52,695 nucleotides of DNA. Source: a virus. This document shows positions 10,215-48,552 of this stretch, in pieces. The first letter of the stretch is position 1, and the number at the start of each line of letters is the position of its first letter. A program made the position numbers and the translations under genes. The DNA lies in the IMG/VR virus record IMGVR_UViG_3300047994_000145, one strand, 5' to 3'. The notes under the pieces were generated by a model. The model was not told where the DNA came from, did no database searches, and saw only the letters and a list, made by a program, of their open reading frames with translations.

Positions 10215-10693
10215 CACTAAGAATTAAAGTAATAATCGGGGTAGTGTATACAGCTGCCTGTTTAGCTCTGGGAGCCTACCTGGTACCAGAGAAGACAAAA
10301 ATTGTCACTAAGGTTGCTGAGGCTGAAAAAGTGGTTGATAGAGATGACACCAAGAAAGAGATAAACAGGCACAAGGAAACTAAAATAGTTGCAGTCACGG
10401 AAACAGATGGAAAAAAGGAAGTAACTACCACGATTACTGAAGATACTGGTGTAAACACAGAAAAGAAGACGAATGACACTTTATCAGACAACAAACTAAC
10501 CACGGTGGATAAAGAAATAGTTCGAGGCAGTTCTAAGGTGACGATTTCAGCACTATTTGCAACAAATGCAAGCAGCCCGAATGGTATAAGTTACGGATTG
10601 TCAGTGACGAAACCTATTTTTGGACCAATCACTGTTGGGTTATTTGGGATTGCTAATGGAACCTGTGGTTTAAGCCTAGGTTTGACTTTTTAA
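10211..10693 (+). CDS. Hypothetical membrane protein (160 aa)
   Basis: N-terminal TM; Lys/Thr/Glu-rich middle; Gly-rich hydrophobic C-terminus ending in Phe. Confidence 0.6.
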   Translation: MTLRIKVIIGVVYTAACLALGAYLVPEKTKIVTKVAEAEKVVDRDDTKKEINRHKETKIVAVTETDGKKEVTTTITEDTGVNTEKKTNDTLSDNKLTTVDKEIVRGSSKVTISALFATNASSPNGISYGLSVTKPIFGPITVGLFGIANGTCGLSLGLTF

Positions 10694-12004: not shown

Positions 12005-12127
12005 ATGTTTAGTAAAGCACTAAATACGGTAATGGTTTTTTTACTAGCTCTTTCCTTAGGAGCATTGGCATTTATGTTCGCTTTATCGGTCGTACTTGTA
12101 TGGTCTTTTCTTGCAAGCATGGTATAA
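12005..12127 (+). CDS. Mini membrane peptide (40 aa)
   Basis: Entirely hydrophobic (VMVFLLALSLGALAFMFALSVVLVWSFL). Confidence 0.35.
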   Translation: MFSKALNTVMVFLLALSLGALAFMFALSVVLVWSFLASMV

Positions 12128-12226: not shown

Positions 12227-13109
12227 ATTTAATATGGATAAGCTCGTCAGCGACGTCAAAAAACAATTTAAAGACGAGAAGTTATCTAACAAATTAGGAA
12301 CTGGTAATAAGTTAAAACAGCTAGGAGAAGGTGATTTTCTTAAGATGCCTCAATGGTGGGTTGAGGCCACTAACACACCAGGGCTGCCGTATGGAGCAGG
12401 TGTTCAGTTTGCTGGTAAAACTGACAGTGGTAAAACTTCGGCCGCCTTAGAAGCAATCAAAGCAGCCCAAGAGCAAGAGCATGCAGTTATTTACATTGAA
12501 ACCGAAAACAAAACATCGGAACGAGATTTGATCAACAAAGGTATAGATCCTAAGCAGATAGCAATTATTCGGACAACAGTGGCAGAAGAAGCATTTGATA
12601 TGTTATTTGAACTTTGGGATGGTGTAAAAAACAGCTACCCCGATGCTCCTATGCTTATCGTGTGGGACTCTTTTGGAAATATGGTATCACAACGAGATTC
12701 TGAGCTCACTATGTTAGACGGTAAACAAAAGCCAGGTGGCAAAGGATCAGCTAACAGATTAGGTCTTAGTAAACTCATTGCTAAAATGGAGCAATCCTCT
12801 AAGGTTGCTTTGTTTCTTGTAAACTATACTTATGCCAATCTTGGTTCACCAGGAAGAACTAATGCAGGCGGTGAAGCCTTAGGAATGCTGTCCTCCCTCA
12901 TATACCAGACAGCTAGAAGAAGCTGGCTTGAGAAGACAGTAAAAGGAGAAAAAGTGAGGATCGGCGCTCAAGTGCAGTGGACCCTGTATAAAAATCACAT
13001 TTATAAAGATAATCCAGGTCCTAAGCAAGTGTTAGTTAATATCACTTCTTCAGGATTAGAAGTTGTTGGAAAAATAAATAGTCCAGATTCAAGCAATGAG
13101 GAGGAATGA
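12219..13109 (+). CDS. RecA-superfamily ATPase; candidate recombinase or annealing-accessory protein
   Basis: GLPYGAGVQFAGKTDSGKTSAALEA (Walker A in a RecA-like context); MLIVWDSFG (Walker B). Confidence 0.6.
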   Translation: MTKFNMDKLVSDVKKQFKDEKLSNKLGTGNKLKQLGEGDFLKMPQWWVEATNTPGLPYGAGVQFAGKTDSGKTSAALEAIKAAQEQEHAVIYIETENKTSERDLINKGIDPKQIAIIRTTVAEEAFDMLFELWDGVKNSYPDAPMLIVWDSFGNMVSQRDSELTMLDGKQKPGGKGSANRLGLSKLIAKMEQSSKVALFLVNYTYANLGSPGRTNAGGEALGMLSSLIYQTARRSWLEKTVKGEKVRIGAQVQWTLYKNHIYKDNPGPKQVLVNITSSGLEVVGKINSPDSSNEEE

Positions 13110-14089
13110 TGAGTATACCTATCGCAGTTTTAATATCAGATATTCACTTTGATCTCAATACGTTAGAAGTGGCTACTGAAGCTTTAAACACTGCTATAGG
13201 AAAAGCCACGACACTAAATGTGCCCTTGATTATAGCCGGTGACCTTCATAACACTAAGGCCATAATCAGGGGAGAAGTCATAAATACTTTGGTGGGTATA
13301 CTGAAAAATAAACACTGCAGTACACACATTCTTGTTGGAAATCATGACTTGTTTAATGAAAAAGGCAAAGATCATGGACTTGAATATCTAAGACCTTATG
13401 CTGAAATAATCGATATTCCTTCTTATTTGGCGGGTACCAACTTATTTTTAATACCCTATCAAACGGATAGCGACGAGTTTTCTAAACATGTTAAAACTGC
13501 TAACAAAGGTAGTATTATCGTTTGTCATCAAGGGGTTAAGGGAGCTTTTATGGGAGATTATGTGCAAGATAAGACTTCCATAGATGTTAAAGAACTTGAT
13601 GGATTTAAGGTCATATCCGGTCATTACCATAGGCACCAGACTGTAGGTCCTTTAACTTACATAGGATCCCCTTTTACTCACTCTTTCGGCGAGGCTAATG
13701 ATGGTCCTAAAGGGTTCTTGATATTAAACGATGATGGATCGTATTCCCGAGAAATTCTAAACCTACGTAAACACATGATTATCACCGGTGAATTAACAGA
13801 ATCAGGACTTATTTTAGAACAGCATCAAAAAGTAAATCAAGGAGATACAGTAAAAGTTAAGGTAAAAGGATCTAGAAGCCTGCTAGCTACTTTCAAGAAA
13901 CAAAAAGTCGCGGAGCTTATTAACCACAACAACTTTAAATTAGAGCTTATACCACAAGATCTTGAAAATATAGAAAAAGTACAGGTATCGGATACTCCTG
14001 AGACTATTTTTGACAAAGTTATTGATTCTTTACCTGATTCTGAAGAGCACAAACAGTTCTTAAAATCATTATGGAGGGATTTGGTATGA
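13106..14089 (+). CDS. Mre11/SbcD-type nuclease (metallophosphoesterase)
   Basis: Motifs SDIHF, GDLHN, GNHD and GHYH; directly precedes the Rad50-like gene. Confidence 0.8.
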   Translation: MMSIPIAVLISDIHFDLNTLEVATEALNTAIGKATTLNVPLIIAGDLHNTKAIIRGEVINTLVGILKNKHCSTHILVGNHDLFNEKGKDHGLEYLRPYAEIIDIPSYLAGTNLFLIPYQTDSDEFSKHVKTANKGSIIVCHQGVKGAFMGDYVQDKTSIDVKELDGFKVISGHYHRHQTVGPLTYIGSPFTHSFGEANDGPKGFLILNDDGSYSREILNLRKHMIITGELTESGLILEQHQKVNQGDTVKVKVKGSRSLLATFKKQKVAELINHNNFKLELIPQDLENIEKVQVSDTPETIFDKVIDSLPDSEEHKQFLKSLWRDLV

Positions 14090-15732: not shown

Positions 15733-15936
15733 ATGTGTCCAATAAGTCCAGTATTTAAAAATCGAAAAGATAATAAGTACTATCACTGGGATGAGACGGG
15801 CTTAGTAGAAATAGGTCCATTTAGTGATGAGGAGGAAGCCGTAACAGCTTCGTATAAATATTCTGTATCGTTGGATAATGAACGTGTTGATTCTTCTAGC
15901 ATTTACAAAGAAAAGGAAGATAAACGTGGCCTTTAA
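15733..15936 (+). CDS. Hypothetical protein (67 aa)
   Basis: GGGAGAGG RBS before the internal Met. The ORF track starts at an upstream TTG. Confidence 0.5.
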   Translation: MCPISPVFKNRKDNKYYHWDETGLVEIGPFSDEEEAVTASYKYSVSLDNERVDSSSIYKEKEDKRGL

Positions 15937-16309
15937 AAAGGGTATCAAGAATCCTAGGGTAAATAAACGAGAACAAGGGCTTTTAAAAGGAGCTCTAAGG
16001 CGTGTTTTTGCTAGGTCTGAACTGCGTAACAAAGTGTTAAAAGCTGCTATTGTAAAGCACAGTGATAGCAGTAGACCTAGGGTTAAGACTTGGGTTAAAT
16101 GTAAAGAGTGTGGCAAATTAGAGGCTAAAAGTTACATGGTAGTAGATCACATTGATCCTCTTATTCCGCTTAATTCCTCTTTTGAAGAAATGAGTGTTGA
16201 CGAAGTAATTAATAGGCTCTGGTGTGACGAGAAGAACCTACAAGTGCTGTGTAAAGATTGTCATAATATTAAGACTAAACAAGAAACTAAAATAAGGAGG
16301 AAAAAATGA
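15878..16309 (+). CDS. HNH endonuclease
   Basis: CKECG...VVDHIDP...CKDCHNIKT (HNH with flanking Cys pairs). The true start is uncertain; a GTG at 15926 is possible. Confidence 0.75.
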   Translation: MNVLILLAFTKKRKINVAFKKGIKNPRVNKREQGLLKGALRRVFARSELRNKVLKAAIVKHSDSSRPRVKTWVKCKECGKLEAKSYMVVDHIDPLIPLNSSFEEMSVDEVINRLWCDEKNLQVLCKDCHNIKTKQETKIRRKK

Positions 16310-17458: not shown

Positions 17459-17487
17459 TTGACTTTTTAAAAGAGACGGGGTATATT
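17459..17487 (+). promoter_or_regulatory. Sigma70-type promoter (TTGACT-17 nt-TATATT) giving a leaderless transcript
   Basis: The ATG at 17494 lies exactly 6 nt after the -10 box, with no SD. Confidence 0.55.
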
Positions 17488-17493
17488 TATATT

Positions 17494-18012
17494 ATGAATG
17501 CTTGGATGGTAGCTTTAAGCTTTTTTTTAAGTAGTTGCTCCGCAGGTTCCCCTTCACAAGACATGAGGATGTCTCCGCGACAGATGGTAGAAGGAGCAGA
17601 AGTAAAATACGGGATACCTCACGGCCTTTTATCTGCCTTAATAGAGGTAGAGTCTAAATGGAACGTAAAGGCCAAGGTTTTAAAAGACGGAGTATCAAGG
17701 CACACTTCATTTGGCCTCACCCAAATTCAATTAGATTCAGCTTTGTTTGTTCAACGCAAAAAAGCTGAAAGCAATGGTTATAAGATAACCAGGAAAAACA
17801 AAGTAACCGCTAAAGAATTGATGATCCCTGAGATTAACATAGACTACGGAGCTGCGTACTTAAAATGGCTTTTAGTGAGGCATAAAAACAATGTTGCCTG
17901 GGCACTTAGCTGTTATAATGCAGGACCTGGCAGCGGTATATGCAAAGCTAAAAAGTACAGTAATTACGTAGGTCTTATTCTTAATGCTTATGTCGACAAA
18001 ACAGGTAGATGA
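17494..18012 (+). CDS. Lytic transglycosylase (SLT domain), probably a lipoprotein
   Basis: Signal peptide with an LSSC lipobox; EVESKWN catalytic Glu context; GLTQIQ; YNAGPG. Confidence 0.75.
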   Translation: MNAWMVALSFFLSSCSAGSPSQDMRMSPRQMVEGAEVKYGIPHGLLSALIEVESKWNVKAKVLKDGVSRHTSFGLTQIQLDSALFVQRKKAESNGYKITRKNKVTAKELMIPEINIDYGAAYLKWLLVRHKNNVAWALSCYNAGPGSGICKAKKYSNYVGLILNAYVDKTGR

Positions 18013-18431: not shown

Positions 18432-18456
18432 CTTAAAATTTTAGTTGTGGTAATCT
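18428..18456 (+). promoter_or_regulatory. Sigma70-type promoter (TTGACT-17 nt-TAATCT, with TGg extended -10) giving a leaderless transcript
   Basis: The -35 box contains the upstream TGA stop. The ATG at 18463 lies 6 nt after the -10 box. Confidence 0.5.
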
Positions 18457-18462
18457 TAAATT

Positions 18463-18696
18463 ATGAAGACGCCGCTTTATGTAACAATTGAGGACTATGT
18501 ATCACTCCAAAGAAACGGAATAACGATAAACCTTCCTCAAAACTCATTCGTTAGACCAATTAAATACAGCTATGTACCCGAACATGTAAAAGAAAGAGAT
18601 GGATACGATTGGTTTAATCCAGAGGAATACGTTTATGTTTACTGTCACTACGGTATTTTGCCTCTAAGATGGGAAATACTTAGAAAGGATGAGTAA
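18463..18696 (+). CDS. Hypothetical protein (77 aa)
   Basis: ORF track; no SD, consistent with a leaderless start. Confidence 0.5.
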   Translation: MKTPLYVTIEDYVSLQRNGITINLPQNSFVRPIKYSYVPEHVKERDGYDWFNPEEYVYVYCHYGILPLRWEILRKDE

Positions 18697-19905: not shown

Positions 19906-20424
19906 ATGGGTTTTGAATATGATGACGGAAGTACAAGTATTGTAGTGTTAGGTGGGGTAGATAAAAAGACTGGAAAGAAAAATCCCACTGAGCTGATTGG
20001 ATATTTTCTCAAGAGCGAGACGATTAACACTAAGTTTGGCGAAAAGCCTCTGTATGTGTTTAAGACGTCCACAGGCACTAAGGCGATCATTGGAACGGGT
20101 AACCTTAATAAGATTATGGCATCTAAGGTCCCAGGATTACTAACTCACGTTATCGACACCGGTGAAAAAAGGGACGTGGGCAAAGGAAATCCTATGAAGG
20201 TGTTTAGGGTAGGACAAGACCCATCTGACAGCATGGATGCTCCTAGAGCTCAAGAGGCATCATTTGAAGAAGTCGCAGATGAAGAGGTATCGTCCTTAGA
20301 AGAGGAGACGGTAGAAGAGCTGCCTGCTTCCCCTACCCCTCCAGCTCAGCCCGCTAAGACACCAAGTGCAGATAAGCAAGCTCAGCTCCGCGCACTTTTG
20401 AATAAAGCAAAAGCATCTAAGTAG
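19906..20424 (+). CDS. Hypothetical replication-module protein with an acidic, Pro-rich tail; possible ssDNA-binding protein
   Basis: The SSB call rests only on position (before the primase/helicase) and the acidic C-terminal third. No motif was recognised. Confidence 0.3.
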   Translation: MGFEYDDGSTSIVVLGGVDKKTGKKNPTELIGYFLKSETINTKFGEKPLYVFKTSTGTKAIIGTGNLNKIMASKVPGLLTHVIDTGEKRDVGKGNPMKVFRVGQDPSDSMDAPRAQEASFEEVADEEVSSLEEETVEELPASPTPPAQPAKTPSADKQAQLRALLNKAKASK

Positions 20425-24427: not shown

Positions 24428-25318
24428 ATGTATTTATATGCACTGTCGATTCTATGGCCAATTGTAAAGAAAAAAAAGAAGCTAACTGCTTATGTGTTAA
24501 TGAGCTTATTGGCTCTAATCGCACTTTCGGTTGCTTTTAACAAATGGCGCGGTTTCTTTTATGATAACATACAGTTATACAACGTTAAGAACGTTTGGAT
24601 TGGGATAGGTGTGTTTATCGTACTAGCATTAATCAACGTGGTTGTTTACGGAATATCTTCTTATTACACAAGATTTTTAGAATTCAGCATCCGAGAATCT
24701 TTGTACCATACGCTATGTGATAAGATAATGGGCTCAGACGTTCCTAATAAAGACCAGCGATTACAAGAAGATACTCTTAGATTTGGACGCACTATTCTTG
24801 CTTTAATTAAAGCGGTAGTAGATTCAGTGGTTAGACTACCTGTATTTTTAATCGTATTATGGTCGGTAGCTCCTTTTTGGATGGTGATCGTGTCCGTTGT
24901 ATATGCTGTAATAGGCACTTTGGGTAGTAGAAAAGTAGCTGCTAGACTAGTGGACTTAGAATACATACAAGAAGCGAAGGAAGCAACTTTGAGAAGAAAT
25001 ATTATTAAGGCTGTGGAGGAAACCACCGCTTTCCCGACTTTGGATGAGATCAAAGAAAACTGGACAGCCTTAGCAGTGAGAAATAAGCTTCTCAGCTATT
25101 ACACTAGCTTTTACGGACAAATAGCTGTTATATTCCCGTACGTTATGTTGTTGCCTATGTACCTACACCACGCAATAATGCTAGGAGTATTGTTTCAGAC
25201 CAGTAGCGCCATCGAACAAGTGTTATCAAGTTTAAGTGTTTTTGTTGATAGCAGGGATCTCGTAGTTGATTTGCAAATGATTACAAAACGTATTAAAGAA
25301 TTAGATAAAAAAGCTTGA
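24428..25318 (+). CDS. SbmA/BacA-like integral membrane protein (ABC-type transmembrane-domain fold, no ATPase domain)
   Basis: Multiple TM segments. NKDQRLQEDTLRFGRT resembles the SbmA_BacA signature as I recall it from E. coli SbmA (QRVQEDTMRF). The C-terminal amphipathic helix is also similar. Confidence 0.5.
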   Translation: MYLYALSILWPIVKKKKKLTAYVLMSLLALIALSVAFNKWRGFFYDNIQLYNVKNVWIGIGVFIVLALINVVVYGISSYYTRFLEFSIRESLYHTLCDKIMGSDVPNKDQRLQEDTLRFGRTILALIKAVVDSVVRLPVFLIVLWSVAPFWMVIVSVVYAVIGTLGSRKVAARLVDLEYIQEAKEATLRRNIIKAVEETTAFPTLDEIKENWTALAVRNKLLSYYTSFYGQIAVIFPYVMLLPMYLHHAIMLGVLFQTSSAIEQVLSSLSVFVDSRDLVVDLQMITKRIKELDKKA

Positions 25319-25360: not shown

Positions 25361-25699
25361 ATGAAAAATAAAATTATTAGGTTCTTTAATTTTTGCAGAG
25401 GATTTTTTCCAGCAAAGTTACCTACAGGGGTGGCAGAGTTTCATGCATGGGCTGACAAGTTTATTGCAACTTATAGCCTTCCAACCAAAGATGTTGATTC
25501 TATTAAGTTTATTATGGCTGCTGAACTTATTAATCTCAGACCTACTACTTTTAGGCAGTCGTATAGACACTTTTATAGCATCATTCATACCGCAGCAACT
25601 AAACAGTTAGCTTCTGCAGTATTTACTGAAATTAAAACAAGACAAAAAGAAGCCGCCAAGGCTGCAGAAGAGGCCATTAAAAATGAACAGTCAAAATAA
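25361..25699 (+). CDS. Hypothetical protein (112 aa)
   Basis: AGAGG RBS; ORF track. Confidence 0.6.
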   Translation: MKNKIIRFFNFCRGFFPAKLPTGVAEFHAWADKFIATYSLPTKDVDSIKFIMAAELINLRPTTFRQSYRHFYSIIHTAATKQLASAVFTEIKTRQKEAAKAAEEAIKNEQSK

Positions 25700-26087
25700 A
25701 GAGTTTGTGGAACTCCAAGAACAATGGTATAAAAAATTAAAAGACAGTGGATTCGATGATATAGAAAAGAATGAAACTTATTTGATTGTAAATAGCTCTA
25801 GCAAATTTAATAGCAAGCGAAATCAAGTTGGCTCGATGCAGAACGTGATTGATGGAATCAACAGCAGAACAGAGTACTATAGGATTGCCGGACACTTTCT
25901 TTATGATTATAAATTTGCTAATGATTTAGATAAGTTCATATGGGAGCTACATTCAGAAGGAATAAGTGTTAGGAATATAACTTTAAAACTAAAAGAAAAA
26001 GGTATTGATTTGTGTCGGGCATCCGCTGGAGTTAAACTGTTAGGCTTAAAAAAAGAAATGATAAAACTTTATGGAATCGATAGTTAA
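25683..26087 (+). CDS. Hypothetical protein with a C-terminal helix-turn-helix-like segment; candidate transcription regulator
   Basis: EGISVRNITLKLKEKGI resembles the HTH of sigma region 4 or LuxR proteins. This is a weak, by-eye resemblance. Confidence 0.3.
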   Translation: MNSQNKEFVELQEQWYKKLKDSGFDDIEKNETYLIVNSSSKFNSKRNQVGSMQNVIDGINSRTEYYRIAGHFLYDYKFANDLDKFIWELHSEGISVRNITLKLKEKGIDLCRASAGVKLLGLKKEMIKLYGIDS

Positions 26088-26487
26088 TAAATCAGAGCTC
26101 ATAGACTACAGAAACCATTTGACCGACGACAGAAACTTTATTCTCGCTACTTTCCTACGAGGTCTCTATTACGGAGATTCATGGTTTAGTGAGATAAACA
26201 AGTCAGTATTTATGGAGCATTATCATAAAGTTATCAATTACTTGATTGATAAAAAGACCATCAACATACGTGTGGCCTGTCTGAAAGATGATCCCACGGT
26301 GATATTAGGGTATGCTATTTTTGAAGGGGACACGCTTCACTGGGTTTTTATCAAAAAGAGCTGGCGAAACATAGGATTAGCTAAAGACCTGGTGCCAAAA
26401 GATATTAAAATTGTAACTCACTTGACCTCTGTAGGGTTGAGTATTTCTAAACGAAAAGGGTTTGAGTTTAACCCTTTTAAACTATAA
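26071..26487 (+). CDS. GNAT-like acetyltransferase-fold protein
   Basis: VILGYAIFEGDTLHWVFIKKSWRNIGLAKDL contains an R-x-x-G-x-A motif A-like element. The start is uncertain. Confidence 0.4.
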   Translation: MESIVNKSELIDYRNHLTDDRNFILATFLRGLYYGDSWFSEINKSVFMEHYHKVINYLIDKKTINIRVACLKDDPTVILGYAIFEGDTLHWVFIKKSWRNIGLAKDLVPKDIKIVTHLTSVGLSISKRKGFEFNPFKL

Positions 26488-28769: not shown

Positions 28770-28786
28770 AAAGACTAAATACCGTA
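28770..28786 (+). promoter_or_regulatory. Conserved 17-mer AAAGACTAAATACCGTA, copy 1 (candidate late promoter or processing site)
   Basis: Identical 17-mers at 45153 and 51011 and a 14/17 copy at 38682. All are intergenic, on the plus strand and ahead of structural genes. Confidence 0.55.
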
Positions 28787-33445: not shown

Positions 33446-33474
33446 TTGACTTAAGTAAAATAAAATGGTATATT
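33446..33474 (+). promoter_or_regulatory. Sigma70-type promoter inside the intron (TTGACT-17 nt-TATATT, with TGg extended -10), leaderless for the GIY-YIG ORF
   Basis: The ATG at 33481 lies exactly 6 nt after the -10 box, with no SD. Confidence 0.55.
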
Positions 33475-33480
33475 AAACAT

Positions 33481-33834
33481 ATGTTTAGTGATAAACCCAT
33501 GATCATATATTTTGTCAGATTAAATGATGAAATAGTTTATATAGGGCAGTCGAAACTCTCTTTGGAAGCAAGAAAAAAACAACACGAATACAATGCACAA
33601 AGAGGCAAAGGATATGTGATAGGTGCAGGCTTAAGAAAGCACGGCGCTGATAAATTCACCTGGAACGTACACAGTGTGTACTACAACCAGGTAGACTTAG
33701 ATGCAGCGGAAAAACATTACATGTCTAAATACAAACCTAAGTATAACATTAACTTAGGAGGCGAAGGGCGAGGAGTTAGAAAAAAAGATTCTATAACTCC
33801 TTGGAACAAGGGTAAAAAAGGTATGCTGTCCTAA
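33481..33834 (+). CDS. GIY-YIG homing endonuclease, catalytic domain only (117 aa)
   Basis: IIYFVRLNDEIVYIGQS (GIY...YIG); the conserved Arg; AEKHYMSKYKPKYN. The ORF ends at PWNKGKKGMLS with no DNA-binding domain. Confidence 0.8.
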   Translation: MFSDKPMIIYFVRLNDEIVYIGQSKLSLEARKKQHEYNAQRGKGYVIGAGLRKHGADKFTWNVHSVYYNQVDLDAAEKHYMSKYKPKYNINLGGEGRGVRKKDSITPWNKGKKGMLS

Positions 33835-35318: not shown

Positions 35319-35353
35319 GTCATTTTTTCATAAAAAAATACACATAACAATCG

Positions 35354-35391
35354 AGGCCACTTAGTCGAAAGATTAGGTGGCCTTTTTTTTT
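35354..35391 (+). terminator. Rho-independent terminator after the capsid gene
   Basis: 13-bp stem (two G-U pairs), GAAA tetraloop, T9 tract. Confidence 0.85.
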
Positions 35392-35393
35392 AT

Positions 35394-35421
35394 TTGACAC
35401 AATACGATCGTGTTGTGTCAA
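35394..35421. promoter_or_regulatory. 28-bp near-perfect palindrome TTGACACAATACGA|TCGTGTTGTGTCAA (candidate operator)
   Basis: 13 of 14 positions are symmetric. It lies between the terminator and the next promoter. Confidence 0.45.
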
Positions 35422-35431
35422 TAAAATAACA

Positions 35432-35460
35432 TTGACTTAGATATTACACCGGTGTAACCT
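35432..35460 (+). promoter_or_regulatory. Sigma70-type promoter (TTGACT-17 nt-TAACCT)
   Basis: 16 nt upstream of the lipoprotein gene, which has an SD. Confidence 0.5.
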
Positions 35461-35476
35461 GATTGTAGGAGCTTAC

Positions 35477-35947
35477 ATGAAAAAACTATTATTATTGCCT
35501 TTTATTTTTACGGCCTGTGGGACTTATGATGCAAGCATACCGAATAGGCTAATCTCCCCTCACAAGCCTATGCCTTCTCCAAGCCCCGTGGCGCCTCTTT
35601 CTTGCACAGTTAAGCAATTAGCCCAGGGTGCACAAATAATGTGCCCTGACGGCTCTGTGGCCCTTATAACAGATGGTACCAACGGTATAAACGGAACAGA
35701 TGGTATCAACGGTACCAATGGAACAGATGCAACCCCGGTGACGACGGTTCAATTCTGCCCAGGCACCCCTACCTACCCTTCAACCTTCCCTGAGTTTGGA
35801 ATAATCATAAGTGGCGTGATGTACGGTGTGTACAGCCAAAATGGTGGTTTCTTAGCGCAGTTGCCTCCTGGTAAATATTACAGCAATGGTATCGGAAGTA
35901 CCTGTAATTTTACCATAAATCCAGATCTAACTATAACTCAAGATTGA
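35477..35947 (+). CDS. Lipoprotein with a short collagen-like G-x-x repeat
   Basis: MKKLLLLPFIFTAC lipobox; DGTNGINGTDGINGTNGTD. Confidence 0.7.
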   Translation: MKKLLLLPFIFTACGTYDASIPNRLISPHKPMPSPSPVAPLSCTVKQLAQGAQIMCPDGSVALITDGTNGINGTDGINGTNGTDATPVTTVQFCPGTPTYPSTFPEFGIIISGVMYGVYSQNGGFLAQLPPGKYYSNGIGSTCNFTINPDLTITQD

Positions 35948-35952
35948 GAATG

Positions 35953-35981
35953 TTGACAAAAGATTTTTGATGTGGTAGGTT
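35953..35981 (+). promoter_or_regulatory. Sigma70-type promoter (TTGACA-17 nt-TAGGTT, with TGg extended -10)
   Basis: Lies ahead of 36002, which has an AGGAGGAAG SD. Confidence 0.5.
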
Positions 35982-36001
35982 TAATATAGGAGGAAGCTAA
36001 A

Positions 36002-36202
36002 ATGGATTATTTTAAAGGCTCTACCGTGACTTATATGAACGAAACATGCTTGGTATTAGACTATGACGAAAACAGTAAAACATTTGAGCTATTCAACATG
36101 TACACCGGTGAGATGTACAGAAAAATTCCGTCAACCTCAGTAGCATTGTGTACCAAGTTAAAAAAGGAGGAATTAAATGAAAACAGCATTAAATATCAAT
36201 GA
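36002..36202 (+). CDS. Hypothetical protein (66 aa)
   Basis: Strong RBS. Confidence 0.55.
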   Translation: MDYFKGSTVTYMNETCLVLDYDENSKTFELFNMYTGEMYRKIPSTSVALCTKLKKEELNENSIKYQ

Positions 36203-36398
36203 CTTAATAATGTTTGATAAAATAGTCTATAAATTTTATTATGAAGATAATCAAGGTGAAGATTTAGTTTTTAGTATGCCAGCTTATAATGACCAACTTA
36301 TCATGTTGTCTAAGAAGTCTTTTGATATCTTATGCGCTAACGGTAAGATAAACCGTCTTGAGAAAATTGGAGGAGCATATGAATTCAGAACGACCTAA
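36177..36398 (+). CDS. Hypothetical protein (73 aa)
   Basis: AAGGAGGA RBS. Confidence 0.55.
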   Translation: MKTALNINDLIMFDKIVYKFYYEDNQGEDLVFSMPAYNDQLIMLSKKSFDILCANGKINRLEKIGGAYEFRTT

Positions 36399-36657
36399 AG
36401 ATGCAGGACTAGAAGTAACAAAATTCTACAATGTAACTATTTTTGAAAAATCTAAATCTTCTAAAGCATTTGAGAAATGGTTTAAAACTATATTTTCAGT
36501 ACAACATCCTGATATATCTAAAGATTTTTTAGTGTTCTGGGAAGTGGATAAAGAAGATGGAGAAGACTATTTGCACTTTATTTCTAACAACATATTTTTT
36601 AACACACAACAGCTTATCATTCTCTTTGTAGATGATATGAACAGCTCTGCTAATTGA
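36379..36657 (+). CDS. Hypothetical protein (92 aa)
   Basis: GGAGGAG RBS before the internal Met. Confidence 0.5.
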   Translation: MNSERPKDAGLEVTKFYNVTIFEKSKSSKAFEKWFKTIFSVQHPDISKDFLVFWEVDKEDGEDYLHFISNNIFFNTQQLIILFVDDMNSSAN

Positions 36658-36668
36658 AAGGAAGTTAT

Positions 36669-36875
36669 ATGAACGTTCCTCCCATAAGGTCTGGTAGTGA
36701 CTATAGTGCTCAAGATAACGTAGTGATATTGGAAAGCAACCTTAAAGCTATGGCCTTTAAACACAACACCACGGTGAAATCTTTGATAGAAGACGCACAA
36801 GCTGCTACCGACCCTACCCCCGACCAAGCGAGAGTACTCAAGATGGCAGAAAGATTAGCTAGATTAACTAATTAG
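36669..36875 (+). CDS. Hypothetical protein (68 aa)
   Basis: AAGGAAG RBS before the internal Met. Confidence 0.5.
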   Translation: MNVPPIRSGSDYSAQDNVVILESNLKAMAFKHNTTVKSLIEDAQAATDPTPDQARVLKMAERLARLTN

Positions 36876-36883
36876 AGTAAATG

Positions 36884-36912
36884 TTGACTTTACATCTCTA
36901 CTGCGGTATTCT
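36884..36912 (+). promoter_or_regulatory. Sigma70-type promoter (TTGACT-17 nt-TATTCT)
   Basis: Lies ahead of 36936, which has a GGAGTGAGAGG SD. Confidence 0.5.
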
Positions 36913-36935
36913 GTACTTAGGAGTGAGAGGTGTTT

Positions 36936-37121
36936 ATGAACTTTCTAAGAGTGCTTGTAAAAATAGGAATTCATGGGAAGAAACACAAAGAATCCTTGGT
37001 GTTTTTAAACGTCAAAAAATACACAGATAAGAAAGAAAACAGAGAAAAACAACTAATAGCTTTCATGAACGACAATGGCATAGGTGCTCTTAGAATAAAA
37101 GACTGTGAAAGGGGGAGCTGA
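36936..37121 (+). CDS. Hypothetical basic protein (61 aa)
   Basis: RBS plus ATG. Confidence 0.5.
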   Translation: MNFLRVLVKIGIHGKKHKESLVFLNVKKYTDKKENREKQLIAFMNDNGIGALRIKDCERGS

Positions 37122-37122
37122 T

Positions 37123-37203
37123 ATGCATACCATAGTCGTTGTTTATTTAGTTTGGCTGATAGTTTCAACCTATTATAAAAACAAAGGACAGTCAAATCTA
37201 TGA
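37123..37203 (+). CDS. Mini membrane peptide (26 aa)
   Basis: GGGGAG RBS; hydrophobic core VVVYLVWLIV. Confidence 0.3.
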   Translation: MHTIVVVYLVWLIVSTYYKNKGQSNL

Positions 37204-37505
37204 ACAAATATAATGTAGGAGACAAATTTAGATACAAGTCTGAAAAAACCATTGAAATCACTGGTATGGATGACTTGTGTCCAGAAAGTACCTTATATGT
37301 GTTAAATGATTACATAGAAGGTCCGTTCTTTAACTATTATAAGGCATCCCCGGATTACATTAAAGAATTAGTAGACTCCGGTGTTTTAGTGCCAGAGCAA
37401 TCAACTAAAATTGTCAATAAGCACCAAGGGCATGAAATTGTTGATAATGTTGCACTAAACAAAGTTTTTAAATACTGCAGAGACTGCAAGGAAGAAGTAA
37501 CATGA
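37200..37505 (+). CDS. Hypothetical protein (101 aa)
   Basis: ORF track; C-terminal CRDC pair. Confidence 0.55.
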   Translation: MNKYNVGDKFRYKSEKTIEITGMDDLCPESTLYVLNDYIEGPFFNYYKASPDYIKELVDSGVLVPEQSTKIVNKHQGHEIVDNVALNKVFKYCRDCKEEVT

Positions 37506-37702
37506 ACAAGCTTTTTACATTGTCAACGCCTATATACACTCTTTCAATAAGACACACCTTGAAATTGTTAGATTTTGTTTGGCACCTTAAATGCAATAAG
37601 TATAAGTCAAGAGGGGCCACGGGTCATGCCTGGCTTAAATGATGCTTGCGACGACACCCGTCGGCAAGTGAGCACGCCCTCACAGATTAATTAGGAGGAC
37701 TT

Positions 37703-37903
37703 ATGACTTACCGAGTGGATAAGCTTTTAGACAAAAATAAGACAGTGACCATGGGATACATAATAATTAACAACGAGACGAGAGAGATACAATCATGCTG
37801 GAAAACGGTTCAGGAAGCAAATGGCGCCGTAAGTATCCTGAACTCTTATGTGAGGAAACAAAAAGCACCACAGAAGAAATATGTTAATAACCTGAAAGGC
37901 TAA
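37703..37903 (+). CDS. Hypothetical protein (66 aa)
   Basis: AGGAGGA RBS. Confidence 0.55.
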   Translation: MTYRVDKLLDKNKTVTMGYIIINNETREIQSCWKTVQEANGAVSILNSYVRKQKAPQKKYVNNLKG

Positions 37904-37914
37904 AAGGAGGATCT

Positions 37915-38181
37915 ATGTGTGACCGAGAATTCGACTACCACAATTATCCGGTGAATACCAAGGCAGGCGACAAGTGCCATTGCGGGTTGTATACGCTAAG
38001 TCATCAAGGTAAATCAGTACTCAGTTCAGAGTATATAGCACCACCTGTGACAGAACCACAGCAGGTCAAATACCCTATATACGACTCACCAGCTGCCCAG
38101 AAGGCAAGGTTGGCAAACTCAAACTGGCTTGCTGCTGTAAATAGACAGAAATTCAGGTTGATCATAGGAGGTAAGCAATGA
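37915..38181 (+). CDS. Hypothetical protein (88 aa)
   Basis: AAGGAGGA RBS. Confidence 0.55.
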   Translation: MCDREFDYHNYPVNTKAGDKCHCGLYTLSHQGKSVLSSEYIAPPVTEPQQVKYPIYDSPAAQKARLANSNWLAAVNRQKFRLIIGGKQ

Positions 38182-38327
38182 AATTCGTAATGAGGGAATA
38201 CCAAAAAGAAGCGTTTGAGAAGATAATGGATGTATACGAGAAAAATCCCAAGGACATGAGAGCTGTATATCAAGCTCCTACTGGGTCAGGAAAGACACTC
38301 TCAAGTATTAAGGACAAATCATCATGA
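38178..38327 (+). pseudogene. N-terminal stub (49 aa) of a superfamily 2 (DEAD or type III restriction res-like) helicase
   Basis: MKFVMREYQKEAFEKI...YQAPTGSGKTL (Q-motif-like segment plus Walker A), then a stop after 9 more codons. Confidence 0.55.
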
Positions 38328-38361
38328 TGTTGTTTTCCTTGATTATTTCTCGTTTTTCAAT

Positions 38362-38682
38362 ATGAATGTTGTAGGAGATATTGAGGCCTTTATTAATAAT
38401 AACAACATATTACATAAAGGAAAGCCTTTTATATTTGCAATAACGCTGGCTAAAAGCATGAGAGGCCAAACAGAAGATATGTTAAATTACATGAACACCG
38501 TGGTTGCGGATGGCAATCAAAAGCGGGTGGCTAACACTTTAGAAGAAGTAGAGGATGCACTGTGTAGTGTTTTAATTGATGCAAACCCAAGCCTAGGAAT
38601 AGAGTACCTCGTTAAGAAAGAGTATAAAGCTCAAAGAAATTCAATACCTATGTACTTTTTGATGTTTAAGCTCATGAAGTAA
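38362..38682 (+). CDS. Hypothetical protein (106 aa)
   Basis: ORF track only; no SD. Confidence 0.4.
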   Translation: MNVVGDIEAFINNNNILHKGKPFIFAITLAKSMRGQTEDMLNYMNTVVADGNQKRVANTLEEVEDALCSVLIDANPSLGIEYLVKKEYKAQRNSIPMYFLMFKLMK

Positions 38683-38698
38683 AAGACTGTATACCGTG
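38682..38698 (+). promoter_or_regulatory. Degenerate copy of the late 17-mer (AAAGACTGTATACCGTG, 14/17)
   Basis: Starts at the last base of the upstream stop codon; followed by the hairpin 38704-38726; precedes the tail gene block. Confidence 0.45.
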
Positions 38699-38787
38699 TA
38701 CGAGAGACCAATTCGATCTCTCGTCCTGAAGACCTTGCCGATTGCGTGGAACAGGACTATCAAATCGGCGTTAAAGGAAAACGGTAT

Positions 38788-39498
38788 ATGGCTAATCGAA
38801 ACTACCCCTCCAGTAGGGTATTTAGTGGACACATAATGGCAGTTGAACTCGACTGCAACTTTGTTGTGGACAGTGCAAATGGAAACGGCCTTGGGATTCG
38901 TAATCTTAAAGGGCCTTTCATTCAGAACGTGTTCATGCACACTTCAGCATCACCAGGAATCGGGAACTCAAACCCACAGACTCCCGGTCAGATTATAACT
39001 AACCCAAACCCAGCCCCAGGAACAATCATCGTTCAGCTTCAAGATAACTACAATAGAATTTTATCAGGATCAAATTCTATCGTGTCAGCTTTAGGATCAA
39101 ACCTCAAGGTTGATAGCGCTGATGCAGCGTTAACCCCAGGGGTTGGATATGTTATCACCATCCTAGGAGATGCGACAGCCGCTGATTGGATCGCTTTAGG
39201 CGTACCAGCTGGTATAGTGCCCGCTGTAGGCGTTGCTTTCATCGCTAAAGTTTCAGGTTCAGGCATAGCTTCTGTTTCAAGAGTAGCCCCAAGCATTGCT
39301 TCTTCACCAGTAGGGAGCATTGAAATCCTTGGAGATTCTAATCAAGCTTTAGGACCTTCTATCTCTCAGCAAGGGTTTGGAGCTCAAATTATTCTCCAAT
39401 GCCGACAAGGGGGGTCAATCGCAACCCCGTCTGATGGGTCAGTCATCAGTCTGCAATTCTTGCTCAGCAACAGCAGCATTTTGATTCAAGGCGAATAA
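38788..39498 (+). CDS. Virion structural protein (236 aa)
   Basis: AAGGA RBS before the internal Met; Gly/Ser/Ala/Ile-rich; first gene of the tail block. Confidence 0.55.
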   Translation: MANRNYPSSRVFSGHIMAVELDCNFVVDSANGNGLGIRNLKGPFIQNVFMHTSASPGIGNSNPQTPGQIITNPNPAPGTIIVQLQDNYNRILSGSNSIVSALGSNLKVDSADAALTPGVGYVITILGDATAADWIALGVPAGIVPAVGVAFIAKVSGSGIASVSRVAPSIASSPVGSIEILGDSNQALGPSISQQGFGAQIILQCRQGGSIATPSDGSVISLQFLLSNSSILIQGE

Positions 39499-42051: not shown

Positions 42052-45000
42052 ATGCTAAACAAGCAATCTATACCGATAAACTTCTCCATGGGGCTAGATA
42101 CAAAAACTGATAGTTTTCAAGTACCTATTGGTAAATTTGTCTCATTAGAAAACTCCATATTCACCAAGGGGGGGATGCTACAAAAGCGCAATGGCTTTGG
42201 TGCATTAACAACAATACCAAATGCATCTAAGACTAGTAGCGCCTACCTAACAACCTTTGGCGGTGATCTCACAGCGATAGTGAATGATACCCTCTACACT
42301 TATTCTGAACCAAACAGCACCTGGATAAAAAAAGGCAACCTCAATCCTGTTAGTTTAAAAGTATTGCCAGTGGTGAGAAGTGGAACCAACCAGATACAGG
42401 CTGACTCAGCGGTGTCACCTTCAGGAATTGCTTGTATCGTATATGGTGATAACAATGGAACCACAACCACGTTTAAGTACACAGTGGTAGACTCTAGCAC
42501 AGGTCAATGCCTTATTGTACCTACTGCACTACCATCAGCTGATGCAACTTATGGAACTCCAAGGGTATTTATCTTAGGCAGTTACTTCGTGATTGTATAC
42601 ACAACTCGTCCTAGCTCTTATCAATTAAATTATTTAGCATTATCCATCGGAAATCCATCACTTACGAGGGCAGGAGTACTATCAAACTCTTATGTGCCTT
42701 CAGCTTCCTTAAGTTGGGATGCATTAGTCACCAATAACTCTTTATTTTTAGCATACAACACAACTTCGGGAGGGCAGGCGATAAACATTACCGCATTAAA
42801 TCAAAATCTTATACAATCAGCAACTATATCAATCACCGGTGAAACAGCGACAATAATGAACCTGTCAACAGACAACAATAACATATATGCCACCTATTAC
42901 AACAGTGCAACAACTACAGGCAGAATCTTCTCATTTGGCTTATCCCTAGGTATTGCTATGGCACCCACGACCTGGACAACTGTCGGTGTGGTGAATAACA
43001 TAGCAGCGATCCCAGTGAACAACATCACAACCATATTCTCAGAGATACAAAACACATACTCATATGACACTTCGGTACAGACAGATTACATAAACAAGGT
43101 TACAGTGACCAACCCAGCAAGTTTAGGTGGAACCGGAACCGTATCAGCAAGCTCTGTATTCATTAGGGATTTAGGACTCGCATCTAAAGGGTTCACTGTG
43201 GACACTCAATCATATGTATTAACAATTCAATCTTCTGCTTATCAACCAACATACTTTCTACTTAACATGCAAGCGCAAGTGATTGCAAAGATTGCATATT
43301 CCAACGGACCTCAATACTACACCACCGGATTAACTGACGTTACAGTGCTAAATAACACAGCATATTTTGCCACCCTCTACAAAGACAACCTCATACCAAT
43401 AAATAAGACTCAAGGAGCCGCCACTGTAGCCGGTGTATACGCTCAGCTAGGTGTCAATTTAGACAGCGTTAATTTTGCACCAAATTCAATAGACACAACT
43501 GAGATAGGTAATAACTTAAACATATCAGGTGGATTTATTAGTACCTACGATGGGGTGTCAGTTACCGAGCAAAACTTTTTCATATGGCCAGAGTTAGACA
43601 CTAATGTAGATTCCAATGGCACATCTAAAGCAGCTGCTGTTATAAGTGGCGGTGCAATGCTCAAGCAACAATATTACTATGTTGGTGTATATGAATGGAG
43701 CGATAACCAAGGTAACATTTTTAGGTCAGCTCCCTCTATTCCTGTACCAGTAGCAGCCGCTAGTATGGCAGCAGGCAGCGGGAATGGTGTAACCATGGCA
43801 TTTCCAACCCTTAGGATAACCTACAAGCTGCAATCCCCCCCTAAGTTAGTGTTATACAGATGGAGTGCTCAGCAACAGGTATACTACCAAGTAACCTCGG
43901 TGACCTCACCAGTACTTAATGATCCAACAGTAGACTGGCTCACTATTACAGACCTTCAGTCAGATGCTCAGATCATTGGCAATAGCATATTATATACAAC
44001 TGGCGGTGTCATAGAAGACCTATCCCCCCCACCGAGTGATGTTATGACACTATTTGACAACAGAATGTGGGTACTGGACTCTGAAGATAGAAACTTGTTA
44101 TGGTTTTCAAAGCAAGTGATAGAAGCCACACCAGTGGAAATGTCAGACTTATTAACCCTTTACGTTGCTCCTACAATCGGAGCGTCAGGTTCAACAGGGG
44201 ATATAAAAGCCTTATACCCAATGGATGACAAATTAATAATCTTTAAGAAAGACGCCATGTTGTACATCAACGGCTCAGGACCAGACAACACCGGTGCAAA
44301 CAACGGATACTCTCAGCCGGTGCTAATCAGCTCAGTGGTTGGGTGCTCTAATCAACAAAGCCTGGTTGTTATGCCAATGGGCATAATGTTCCAATCAGAT
44401 AAGGGCATATGGCTATTAGGCCGTGATTTAGGCACCAGCTACATTGGAGCGCCAGTTGAGGCATTTACCCAAAACTCAACAGTTCTAAGCGCCTTGACCG
44501 TCCCAGGCACTAATCAGGTTAGATTTACACTGAATACCGGTGTAACCCTGATGTATGATTACTATTATCAGCAATGGGGATCGTTTATTAATATACCAGC
44601 TCAGTCGAGCACTATATACAACAGCCTTCACACATATATAAACAGCTATGGGCAGATATTTCAAGAAACACCCGGTGTATATATAGACAACACTTCTCCT
44701 GTTTTGCTTTCATTTACAACAAGTTGGATAAACTTTGCAGGGCTGCAAGGCTTTGAAAGGTTCTATCAAATGTATGTTTTAGGAACCTACATCACTCCTT
44801 TTAAACTTAACACCCAAATAGCCTATAATTATAACCCTAGTGCCATACAATCGACTATAATAACCCCAAGCAACTATGCAGGTAACTGGGGTAGCGAAAA
44901 CCTATGGGGCAGCAGTGGCACCTGGGGGGGCACTCAAAACGTGGGAACTGAAGGTAGCTCTAACGTGTTTGAGTTTAGACTGTTCCCACAAGTACAAAAA

Positions 45001-45150
45001 TGTGAATCATTTCAACTAACAATCACAGAACAATACGATTCATCCTACGGTGTACCTGCCGGACAAGGATTAACCTTATCCGGTATGAACCTAATCGTCG
45101 GAGCTAAACGTAGCTTCAGAACATCTAAAGCATCAGCTAATTTCGGTTAA
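42052..45150 (+). CDS. Large tail structural protein (1032 aa)
   Basis: Largest ORF in the genome; beta-rich Ser/Thr/Asn/Tyr composition; lies in the tail block. Confidence 0.6.
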   Translation: MLNKQSIPINFSMGLDTKTDSFQVPIGKFVSLENSIFTKGGMLQKRNGFGALTTIPNASKTSSAYLTTFGGDLTAIVNDTLYTYSEPNSTWIKKGNLNPVSLKVLPVVRSGTNQIQADSAVSPSGIACIVYGDNNGTTTTFKYTVVDSSTGQCLIVPTALPSADATYGTPRVFILGSYFVIVYTTRPSSYQLNYLALSIGNPSLTRAGVLSNSYVPSASLSWDALVTNNSLFLAYNTTSGGQAINITALNQNLIQSATISITGETATIMNLSTDNNNIYATYYNSATTTGRIFSFGLSLGIAMAPTTWTTVGVVNNIAAIPVNNITTIFSEIQNTYSYDTSVQTDYINKVTVTNPASLGGTGTVSASSVFIRDLGLASKGFTVDTQSYVLTIQSSAYQPTYFLLNMQAQVIAKIAYSNGPQYYTTGLTDVTVLNNTAYFATLYKDNLIPINKTQGAATVAGVYAQLGVNLDSVNFAPNSIDTTEIGNNLNISGGFISTYDGVSVTEQNFFIWPELDTNVDSNGTSKAAAVISGGAMLKQQYYYVGVYEWSDNQGNIFRSAPSIPVPVAAASMAAGSGNGVTMAFPTLRITYKLQSPPKLVLYRWSAQQQVYYQVTSVTSPVLNDPTVDWLTITDLQSDAQIIGNSILYTTGGVIEDLSPPPSDVMTLFDNRMWVLDSEDRNLLWFSKQVIEATPVEMSDLLTLYVAPTIGASGSTGDIKALYPMDDKLIIFKKDAMLYINGSGPDNTGANNGYSQPVLISSVVGCSNQQSLVVMPMGIMFQSDKGIWLLGRDLGTSYIGAPVEAFTQNSTVLSALTVPGTNQVRFTLNTGVTLMYDYYYQQWGSFINIPAQSSTIYNSLHTYINSYGQIFQETPGVYIDNTSPVLLSFTTSWINFAGLQGFERFYQMYVLGTYITPFKLNTQIAYNYNPSAIQSTIITPSNYAGNWGSENLWGSSGTWGGTQNVGTEGSSNVFEFRLFPQVQKCESFQLTITEQYDSSYGVPAGQGLTLSGMNLIVGAKRSFRTSKASANFG

Positions 45151-45152
45151 TC

Positions 45153-45169
45153 AAAGACTAAATACCGTA
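45153..45169 (+). promoter_or_regulatory. Conserved 17-mer AAAGACTAAATACCGTA, copy 2
   Basis: Exact copy 3 nt after the stop of the 1032-aa gene. Followed by a GTGAA/TTCAC hairpin. Confidence 0.55.
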
Positions 45170-45202: not shown

Positions 45203-45529
45203 ATGAGTTTATTTGGGGAATATATAAAAGAACGCCTGAATAAAGATATTGTAGAAGATGAAAAAGGCTTTGCCACCTATTACTTTGTCAAAGACGGTAT
45301 ATACTTAGAAGATATGTATGTGTTACCTGCTCATAGAAAAACATCCTGTTCCAATTACTTAGCTGACAAAGTTGCTAGTATTGGAAAAGAAAAAGGTTTT
45401 GATAAAATGTTCACAACAGTCATACCATCCACAAACAATGCGACAGTGAGCTTAAAAGCTTGTCTATCTTATGGATTCAAGCTACATAGCTGTGAACAAA
45501 ATTTAATCATATTAGTTAAGGGGATTTAA
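45203..45529 (+). CDS. Small GNAT-like acetyltransferase-fold protein (108 aa)
   Basis: GFATYYFVKDGIYLEDMYVLPAHRK... has a GNAT beta4-alpha3-like pattern, but the motif A glycines are not conserved. Confidence 0.4.
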   Translation: MSLFGEYIKERLNKDIVEDEKGFATYYFVKDGIYLEDMYVLPAHRKTSCSNYLADKVASIGKEKGFDKMFTTVIPSTNNATVSLKACLSYGFKLHSCEQNLIILVKGI

Positions 45530-45530
45530 A

Positions 45531-46667
45531 ATGGGCGCCGTCGTAGGAACATTATTTGGCTCAACACCAATACAAAATGAACAACTGCAGAATATTAACC
45601 AAGCTCAATCTGGCCAGGCAAATACTTATAATGGTCAACAAGCTCAATCTCAATTTGACATTCAGCAACAGCAAAATTTAGCAAACCAATTAGCTGTTCA
45701 AAACGGTATTGGTAATCAATCTCAAGTGTACAATCAGCAGCAAGCACTTGCTCAACAGCTAGGACAAATGGCACAAGGCCAAGGTCCTAATCCTGCATTG
45801 GCTCAGCTTGCTCAGACTACAGGACAAAACGTTTCTAACCAGGCAGCATTAATGGCAGGCCAACGCGGTGCATCTCAGAACGCTGGACTAATCGCAAGGC
45901 AAGCAGGTATGCAAGGTGCAGCAGCTCAACAGCAAGCAGCTGGACAGGCAGCAACCCTTCAGGCTCAGCAACAATTAGGTGCTGTCGGTGCATTACAGCA
46001 GCAACAAGGAATGTTAGGCAGTTTAGCAACCCAACAAGTTGGACAGCAACAGGGAGCGTTAAGTCAGGTGTCAGCCCAACAACTCGCTCAACAGCAAGCA
46101 GCAGCTAATCAGCAACAGATGGCAGCTAATATCGCTTATCAGCAAAATCAACAAAATACGGCATTAGCTCAAGCACAGACACAACAAGGTAATCAACAGA
46201 CAGCAATGTGGGGCAGTATTGCTGGTGCTGTAGCAGGTGCAGCAGGCGGTGGAGAAATTCCTGAGTTTGCTACTGGGGGCCCAGTATTTGCTAACTCAAG
46301 CAACCAAGCTGCTAACCTAAAAGCTAACTACAAAGGAAAGTCTAAGATTGGCGCACACTTATTTGCTCATGGTGGCAAACCAAGTCATTTAGTAGATGCA
46401 TTGGTATCCCCCGGTGAAAAGATATTACCCCCTAAAGAAGCCAAAGCAGCTAAAGACGGCAAAGTTAATCCAATGAAAGCAGGCAAAACCGTACCAGGCA
46501 AAGCAGCAGTAGGAGGAGCAATAAACTCCTATTCAAATGACACGGTCCCAGCAAAGCTTAAACCAGGTTCTATCGTACTACCAAGGTCGGTAACTCAAGC
46601 TGCTAATCCAGACGGCAAAGCCAAGCAATTTGTAGAAGCTATAAAGAGCAAAAAAGGAAAGAAATAA
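45531..46667 (+). CDS. Gln/Ala-rich internal virion (ejection) protein candidate (378 aa)
   Basis: About 230 aa of Q/A/G/N low complexity, then a Lys/Pro-rich C-terminus with SPGEKILP and KPGSIVLP motifs. Confidence 0.55.
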   Translation: MGAVVGTLFGSTPIQNEQLQNINQAQSGQANTYNGQQAQSQFDIQQQQNLANQLAVQNGIGNQSQVYNQQQALAQQLGQMAQGQGPNPALAQLAQTTGQNVSNQAALMAGQRGASQNAGLIARQAGMQGAAAQQQAAGQAATLQAQQQLGAVGALQQQQGMLGSLATQQVGQQQGALSQVSAQQLAQQQAAANQQQMAANIAYQQNQQNTALAQAQTQQGNQQTAMWGSIAGAVAGAAGGGEIPEFATGGPVFANSSNQAANLKANYKGKSKIGAHLFAHGGKPSHLVDALVSPGEKILPPKEAKAAKDGKVNPMKAGKTVPGKAAVGGAINSYSNDTVPAKLKPGSIVLPRSVTQAANPDGKAKQFVEAIKSKKGKK

Positions 46668-46668
46668 T

Positions 46669-48543: not shown

Positions 48544-48552
48544 GGAGTTGTC

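Follow-up and report, generated by a model that had tools for sequence, protein, structure and literature searches.

The 17-mer AAAGACTAAATACCGTA, which is repeated at the head of the late structural modules in the window (the whole stretch of DNA that was analysed, 52,695 nucleotides), is in our view probably the core of the phage's own late promoter, read by the host RNA polymerase together with a putative phage factor that co-evolves with it. Decisive for reading the motif as a late promoter, as judged from the comparison of relatives, is that the positions of the junctions are conserved while the sequence of the block found there diverges. The late-promoter interpretation appears well supported by comparative anatomy; the T4-like flavour given to it in a preliminary description of the window is not supported.

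The window is the complete circular genome of an uncultured podovirus. Its ends repeat (1-127 is identical with 52569-52695) and a tail-fibre gene (about 51480 to 1606) crosses the junction, which together imply a complete circular assembly of about 52.6 kb with 40% G+C. The tail-fibre gene has an internal repeat with a period of about 825 nt (51679-51870 is identical with 52504-52695), and the assembly may have collapsed or expanded this repeat. The genome encodes a RecA-like protein, SbcCD, a primase-helicase, a family A DNA polymerase, a large terminase, a portal and a major capsid protein, and the portal and capsid show weak SU10-type Pfam matches. The 1032-aa protein (42052-45150) gives an all-beta, propeller-rich model whose best structural match is the SU10 tail nozzle (E 3.8e-16), and its best PDB matches are the tails of phage SU10 and cyanophage A4, the crAss001 muzzle and T7 gp12; it is kept at 41-60% identity across the family, and a PDB profile search with this family returned no match. 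On the model, the 1032-aa protein is predicted to be the tail nozzle, SU10-like, and nozzle, portal and capsid are all SU10/phiEco32-like. The 624-aa and 819-aa proteins are Gly/TM-rich and ejection-protein-like.

Several other features of the gene content were observed. The SbmA/BacA-like transporter gene at 24428-25318 (Pfam E 2e-32) has a homologue in none of about 240 related loci; in phiEco32, too, the terminase genes are directly preceded by an 'ABC transporter' gene. An island of small ORFs (35400-38361), with sigma70-type promoters of their own (35400-35470, 35948 and 36884) and no homologue in relatives, separates the capsid terminator (35353-35392) from the tail genes. A GIY-YIG homing endonuclease gene (33481-33834) with its own promoter is located between the scaffold-like and capsid genes and is found in only three related loci. 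In the early 160-aa protein (10211-10693), an N-terminal transmembrane helix is combined with a Gly-rich C-terminal segment; this segment ends in ...GLTF and resembles an outer-membrane beta-signal, a hint of a diderm host. A 1-kb intergenic region contains, at 8740-8990, two direct repeats of about 114 nt, each with a minus-strand promoter-like site (TTTACT-N17/18-TATATT) and a short hydrophobic ORF. Two small proteins (26071-26487 and 19906-20424) are conserved across the family; inspection of the alignments alone, by eye, reveals a GNAT-acetyltransferase-like motif pattern in one and an OB-fold/SSB-like pattern in the other, which is encoded upstream of the helicase gene.

A search of the whole window found exact copies of the motif at 28770-28786, 45153-45169 and 51011-51027 and a 14/17 variant, AAAGACTGTATACCGTG, at 38682-38698, all on the + strand and all at the positions given in the preliminary description. 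When up to three mismatches were allowed, six matches were observed against 0.21 expected and six were reached in 0 of 100 shuffles, so that the copies exceed chance, as had been claimed. The description also holds for all four copies in that each is on the coding strand, falls between genes or reaches into the stop codon before it, and precedes a structural module, the head, tail, ejection and fibre modules being confirmed from gene content. The exact copy at 28770 (J1) marks the boundary between the terminase large subunit and the head module (the 28802 gene, portal at 30194 and capsid at 34104); a Shine-Dalgarno sequence, GAGAGG, begins 3 nt past the motif, and the ATG of a conserved 'MLPFLK' gene (28802) is 15 nt past it. 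The variant at 38682 (J2) overlaps the stop codon of the gene 38362-38682 and stands before the tail module (from 38788 on, with the nozzle at 42052); it is followed by TACGAGAG and then by a structured leader. The copy at 45153 (J3) lies between the nozzle gene and the ejection-protein genes (45203-51012), and the copy at 51011 (J4) shares bases with the stop codon of the gene for the 819-aa ejection protein, ahead of a 133-aa gene and then the fibre genes, from 51078 on. Just 3' of all three exact copies is NNTGA (AATGA, GGTGA and ATTGA). The two remaining matches within three mismatches were absent from the earlier description. One of them, AAGCACTAAATACGGTA (14/17; 12015-12031, +), is a possible fifth, weaker copy between the early genes and the RecA/SbcCD replication-recombination module, and whether it is a true copy is uncertain because it has three mismatches, lies inside a possible 40-aa ORF (12005-12127) with its own Shine-Dalgarno and is without a counterpart in the replication regions of the relatives, where no block copies were found. 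The other (18649-18665, minus strand, within a gene) is probably a chance match.

The motif is distinct from the host-type promoters of the window. Promoter scans recovered a sigma70-type family, TTGACT-N17-TAnnnT, often with TG, from which we take the host polymerase to be conventional. The preliminary description had separated such a TTGACT-N17 family from the motif, and rightly: in these scans no -35/-10 hexamers 16-18 bp apart were found at the four copies, which thus do not qualify as host sigma70 promoters. Taking AAGACT at J1 as the -35 element of a sigma70 promoter does not fit, because with a -10 element 17 nt on, transcription would start only past the ATG at 28802. Judged by eye, neither sigma54-type nor ECF-type spacings fit the motif. 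At three of the sigma70-type promoters (17459-17496, 18432-18465 and 33446-33483) the -10 element is exactly 6 nt from the ATG and there is no Shine-Dalgarno, which implies leaderless mRNAs.

To find relatives, alignments were needed, because a scan of IMG/VR with the single terminase protein gave nothing. No close relative was found among cultured phages by megablast or tblastn (best terminase identity 25%), and 2673 terminase homologues were found in metagenomes (best 69% identity). We compared 80 IMG/VR loci around terminase, 80 around nozzle and about 34 around helicase homologues, together with two from the closest relatives. No related contig in IMG/VR or the JGI metagenomes contains the exact 17-mer; its one match in IMG/VR and its 33 in JGI metagenomes are all unrelated chance matches. 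Other contigs of the same phage are 99.99-100% identical and so uninformative on strain variation. Every related genome that could be examined over enough sequence bears its own repeated block in place of the window's 17-mer. At least nine related genomes have such blocks, 14-27 nt long and in 2-6 copies, and these occupy the four junction classes of the window: between terminase and the conserved 'MLPFLK' gene (J1), before the first tail gene (J2), between the nozzle gene and a 378-aa gene (J3), and after the last ejection-protein gene, before a gene of about 130 aa that precedes the fibres (J4). A motif search in related genomes, which the preliminary description had proposed, therefore recovers the 17-mer itself in none of them and finds a block of their own at the equivalent junctions.

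The blocks include GAACGAATAGCCTTCTATAG, ACCTAATACGCTATATTAAG, CCAGACATCCGTCCA and AGCGCGnATGACTA (four copies each), GGTCAWTCCGCTAAR (six copies) and ATGGACATTTTGACTAMCCTGAGGC (three copies), and GGGCACTATATCCAT is the own block of one related genome. The block of a relative with 68% terminase identity, AGCACAATATGACATTG, is entirely different from that of the window, and the block of L242, the closest relative by nozzle, AAGGACGAAATACCA, is identical with the window motif at 12 of 15 positions. CTATAG or CTATAT forms the end of several blocks. Both strands were searched in six genomes: all 25 block copies lie on the coding strand, and the opposite strand has none. In a blind test of the regions upstream of J2 and J4, using a 16-nt window, identity of at least 14/16 was reached in 6 of 27 same-genome pairs and 2 of 300 cross-genome pairs; this test replaced one of the exact longest common substring across junctions, which was too strict. 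Near the junctions there are also tRNA-like genes, in L083 just before a block (about 13290-13344) and in L242 just after the nozzle gene (13090-13165).

The surroundings of the blocks suggest where transcription would begin. Of 49 non-redundant relatives, 21 have a canonical GC-rich hairpin with a T-run immediately before the J2 block, and with a terminator in that place a new transcript would have to begin at the block. On the other side, the conserved, Shine-Dalgarno-pairing J2 leader starts 1-14 nt past the block in relatives, and L074 and L083 have Shine-Dalgarno-less start codons 6-7 nt past it. Because the Shine-Dalgarno, structured leader or start codon begins 1-15 nt past the blocks, we infer a transcription start at the 3' end of the motif or no more than a few bases away. 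Sigma70-type promoters occupy J3 in L086-L089 in place of the block, and the site after the capsid terminator carries a sigma70-type promoter in the window and a block of its own in L074. A T-purine element, TAYRAGR (TATGAGG, TACGAGG or TATAGAG), is shared across the family 3' of the genome-specific block, and with the block it makes up a two-part architecture; the corresponding initiation element of the window comprises TGAGA, TGAAC and the sequence that follows J2. Hairpins follow about half of the block copies, with a modest enrichment (mean z -0.63, 44% of copies below -1). From this anatomy it appears that the blocks function as promoters.

The leader of the first tail gene (38699-38787, +) starts right after the J2 motif, and its 5' part pairs with the Shine-Dalgarno region of that gene, whose true ATG is 38788 and not GTG 38746. 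J2 leaders are about 90-110 nt long, with equivalents in L085, L093, L103, L112, L118, L131, L144, L158, L160 and L241. The partner of their 5' arm is the Shine-Dalgarno region, some 90 nt further downstream, and this pairing shows compensatory changes (ATATCCTC/GAGGATAT, TGTCCTTG/CAAGGACA and ATCCTTGG/CCAAGGAT), and the inner stem covaries as well (CCGGTTA/TAACCGG vs CCATTAT/ATAATGG). Rfam gave only a chance match at 38600-38850 (E 2.6), RNAalifold on a MAFFT alignment of the J2 leaders gave no pairs, and a helix test of same- versus cross-genome arms was uninformative, the anti-SD/SD arms being largely shared. The J2 leader looks like a translational control element. At J4, the leader of the 133-aa gene (51028-51077, +) contains a hairpin, GTAGG/CCTAC, with a compensatory change in L242 (GAGG/CCTC).

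We then consider the protein that would read the blocks. Scans of the window's ORFs gave no Pfam or PHROGs match to an RNA polymerase or sigma factor, no match to a single-subunit RNA polymerase (PF00940 or PHROGs) and no DxDGD motif; the clearest pattern of polymerase A/B/C motifs is in the family A DNA polymerase, and there is a lone motif-B-like match in the capsid protein. The statement in the preliminary description that no phage RNA polymerase gene is present thus stands, in the sense that none is detectable by Pfam, PHROGs and motif searches. Genes for gp55, gp33 and a sliding clamp were likewise sought among the ORFs with Pfam and PHROGs, and none was found. For phiEco32 gp36, phmmer gave E>1 with each window ORF and hhalign a probability below 1% with six small conserved-protein alignments. 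All ORFs of at least 500 aa are accounted for (fibre, SbcC, primase-helicase, PolA, portal, nozzle and two ejection proteins), and the products of the early genes are at most 160 aa. Large proteins were considered as a cryptic polymerase and rejected, the 1032-aa protein being the all-beta nozzle and the 819-aa and 624-aa proteins ejection-like; as sigma factors, the early 160-aa protein was set aside as membrane/OMP-like and a 172-aa protein as SSB-like. The only conserved DNA-binding candidate is a 134-aa protein (25683-26087, +) whose C-terminal part bears a LuxR/sigma-region-4-like helix-turn-helix; its gene follows a sigma70-type promoter at 25322 and precedes the terminase genes. The protein is conserved throughout the family, and 82 related loci have a homologue. 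Structural comparison gave nothing significant (best Foldseek E=2), its helix-turn-helix matches are weak and non-significant, and its recognition helix does not obviously track the blocks, since L241 and L007 both have VASTQV and differ in their blocks. That this protein is the promoter specificity factor is speculative.

Under the explanation we prefer, the host sigma70 polymerase would transcribe the early and replication genes from the TTGACT-N17-TAnnnT promoters, and a phage-encoded specificity factor among the products of those genes would direct RNA polymerase to the 17-mer. The polymerase would most probably be the host core enzyme; since a phage polymerase gene is not detectable, host core plus a phage factor is the most economical combination. 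Transcripts would start at or near the 3' end of the motif, in the T-purine-rich initiation element, and would form four units (head, tail, ejection-protein and fibre). The preliminary description had likewise suggested late promoters read by a redirected host polymerase: the conservation of the junctions and the order of terminator and block speak for this proposal, while Pfam and PHROGs yield no gp55- or sigma-like protein that would do the redirecting. Moreover, 14-27 contiguous bases exceed the known single-element sigma promoters and look more like the T7 type, whose enzyme is not visible here. There is a lesser chance that the reader is a promoter-recognition protein of an undescribed kind, either a phage polymerase of unrecognisable fold or a factor outside the sigma70 family; such a factor would give the host core a T7-like specificity for 14-27 contiguous bases and would change its own specificity quickly between related phages.

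That the blocks are promoters for an unrecognised phage-encoded RNA polymerase, of a new fold or diverged beyond detection, is a rival that we take seriously but hold to be improbable. Contiguous blocks of 14-27 nt would fit the promoter of a single-subunit polymerase, as would the two-part architecture of a genome-specific upstream part and a family-wide T-purine initiation part, the block ends CTATAG and CTATAT, which recall T7-group promoters, and the rapid turnover of specificity, with a wholly different block at 68% TerL identity. However, the polymerase motifs, Pfam and PHROGs results described above, the full account of the large ORFs and the small size of the early proteins all count against a hidden enzyme. 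It is less probable still that the blocks act in RNA, as sites where a sequence-specific endoribonuclease or an RNA-binding protein cuts or stabilises long late transcripts at module boundaries. RNA processing had been offered as an alternative in the preliminary description, and the location of the blocks on the coding strand upstream of leaders, with hairpins often after them, is compatible with it, as is the complementarity of the 3' part of the J2 motif, ATACCGT, to ACGGTAT just before the ATG. Yet the efficient-looking terminators immediately upstream in those 21 of 49 relatives would make read-through RNA scarce, and no RNase gene was found in the window. Known RNase sites are short motifs or hairpins, whereas the blocks are long, unstructured and genome-specific.

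The order of terminator and block counts also against sites for loading an antiterminator (nut-, put- or Q-like) that would allow read-through into the next module. In lambdoid phages, nut sites differ from genome to genome, lie between genes on the coding strand and evolve together with a phage protein, a pattern that would suit the blocks too, and terminators are near some junctions. The blocks are, however, downstream of the terminators and not upstream, they contain no boxB-like hairpin, and a number of four to six in each genome, confined to the late region, is unlike nut or Q systems, so that we give antitermination very little probability. Module exchange, the other alternative in the preliminary description, would make the blocks recombination linkers by which phages swap structural modules. 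Their position at module boundaries suits such a role, but a different block in each relative leaves no homology between phages, and the exact 17-mer is in no related contig of IMG/VR or JGI metagenomes; this reading is rejected on these grounds and keeps hardly any probability. Finally, the blocks might be DNA sites at which a phage nickase interrupts one strand, like the localized interruptions of T5, phiKMV-like phages and phage tf, a reading that we hold to be as doubtful as antitermination. Known nick sites have a phage-specific consensus (for example CGACxxxxxCCTA/CTCCGG and TACT/RTGMC) in several copies on one strand only and may co-evolve with the nickase (PMC3517423). The blocks are likewise phage-specific, multi-copy and on one strand, and the window encodes an HNH nuclease (15878-16309) as well as the GIY-YIG nuclease (33481-33834). 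But nick sites have no reported need to be intergenic or to stand at conserved junctions shortly before ribosome-binding sites, those of phiKMV are in the non-coding strand (PMC3517423), the GIY-YIG gene is missing from most relatives, and the arrangement of terminator, block and leader would be left unexplained.

The family to which the window belongs is a large group of uncultured podoviruses (more than 2600 terminase homologues in public data) and offers a natural experiment in the co-evolution of promoters and their readers: the same four late junctions are kept with a different long block in each phage, and there is no recognisable polymerase or sigma gene. Identifying the reader would complete the picture of how a widespread group of environmental phages organises its transcription, and short, orthogonal pairs of promoter and factor could result. 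The blocks are also of use in annotation, as markers of the late transcription units in genomes that consist mostly of genes without known function.

Promoters of the T7 group are contiguous blocks of about 17-23 nt that end at the start, with a phage-specific upstream part and a shared purine-rich initiation part, and exact copies stand at module heads, often with a 5' hairpin. The window family resembles them in block length, in the phage-specific block with a shared purine-rich part, in exact copies at module heads and in the frequent 5' hairpin, and the distances to Shine-Dalgarno, leader and start codon, taken from the sequence alone, would fit a block that ends at the predicted start; it differs in that no single-subunit RNA polymerase gene is detectable in the window. 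The preliminary description had compared the core of the motif, CTAAATAC, with the T4 late promoter TATAAATA, which depends on gp55, gp33 and gp45. The core matches 6/8 of the T4 element, and both systems would have a single AT-rich element near -10, no -35 element, and a host core polymerase redirected by phage proteins, as is proposed for the window phage. However, the relatives keep the position and not the TAAATA core (their blocks at the same junctions include GAACGAATAGCCTTCTATAG, CCAGACATCCGTCCA and ATGGACATTTTGACTAACCTGAGGC), no gp55, gp33 or clamp genes were found in the window, and the T4 late element is 8 bp, so that the blocks of 14-27 nt are twice as long or more; the resemblance to T4 is thus not borne out. 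The nick sites of phiKMV-like, T5-like and tf phages share with the blocks a phage-specific, multi-copy consensus on one strand only (PMC3517423), whereas the sites of the window family keep strictly to intergenic positions on the coding strand, at conserved junctions and ahead of leaders.

By analogy, the closest precedent appears to be the phiEco32 group, whose virions are structurally related. In phiEco32-like phages a phage sigma factor reads single-element promoters with the start 6-8 bp downstream; the middle/late promoters of phiEco32 that depend on gp36 are tAATGTAtA, and phage 7-11, a relative of phiEco32, has a different promoter (GTAAtg-16-aCTA, read with gp47) at the same genome positions (PMC8948821). 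The window differs in that no gp36 or gp47 homologue is detectable, that the blocks of its family are 14-27 nt as compared with 9 nt, and that its genome is 52.6 kb as compared with 77 kb in phiEco32, with nearly all genes on one strand. In both cases the promoter would be phage-specific and without a host-type -35/-10 pair, and the start would be a few bp past a conserved element, as predicted here from the sequence. Furthermore, the few copies stand ahead of the middle/late modules, and relatives keep these positions while the sequence changes, which for the window family is found in at least nine genomes.
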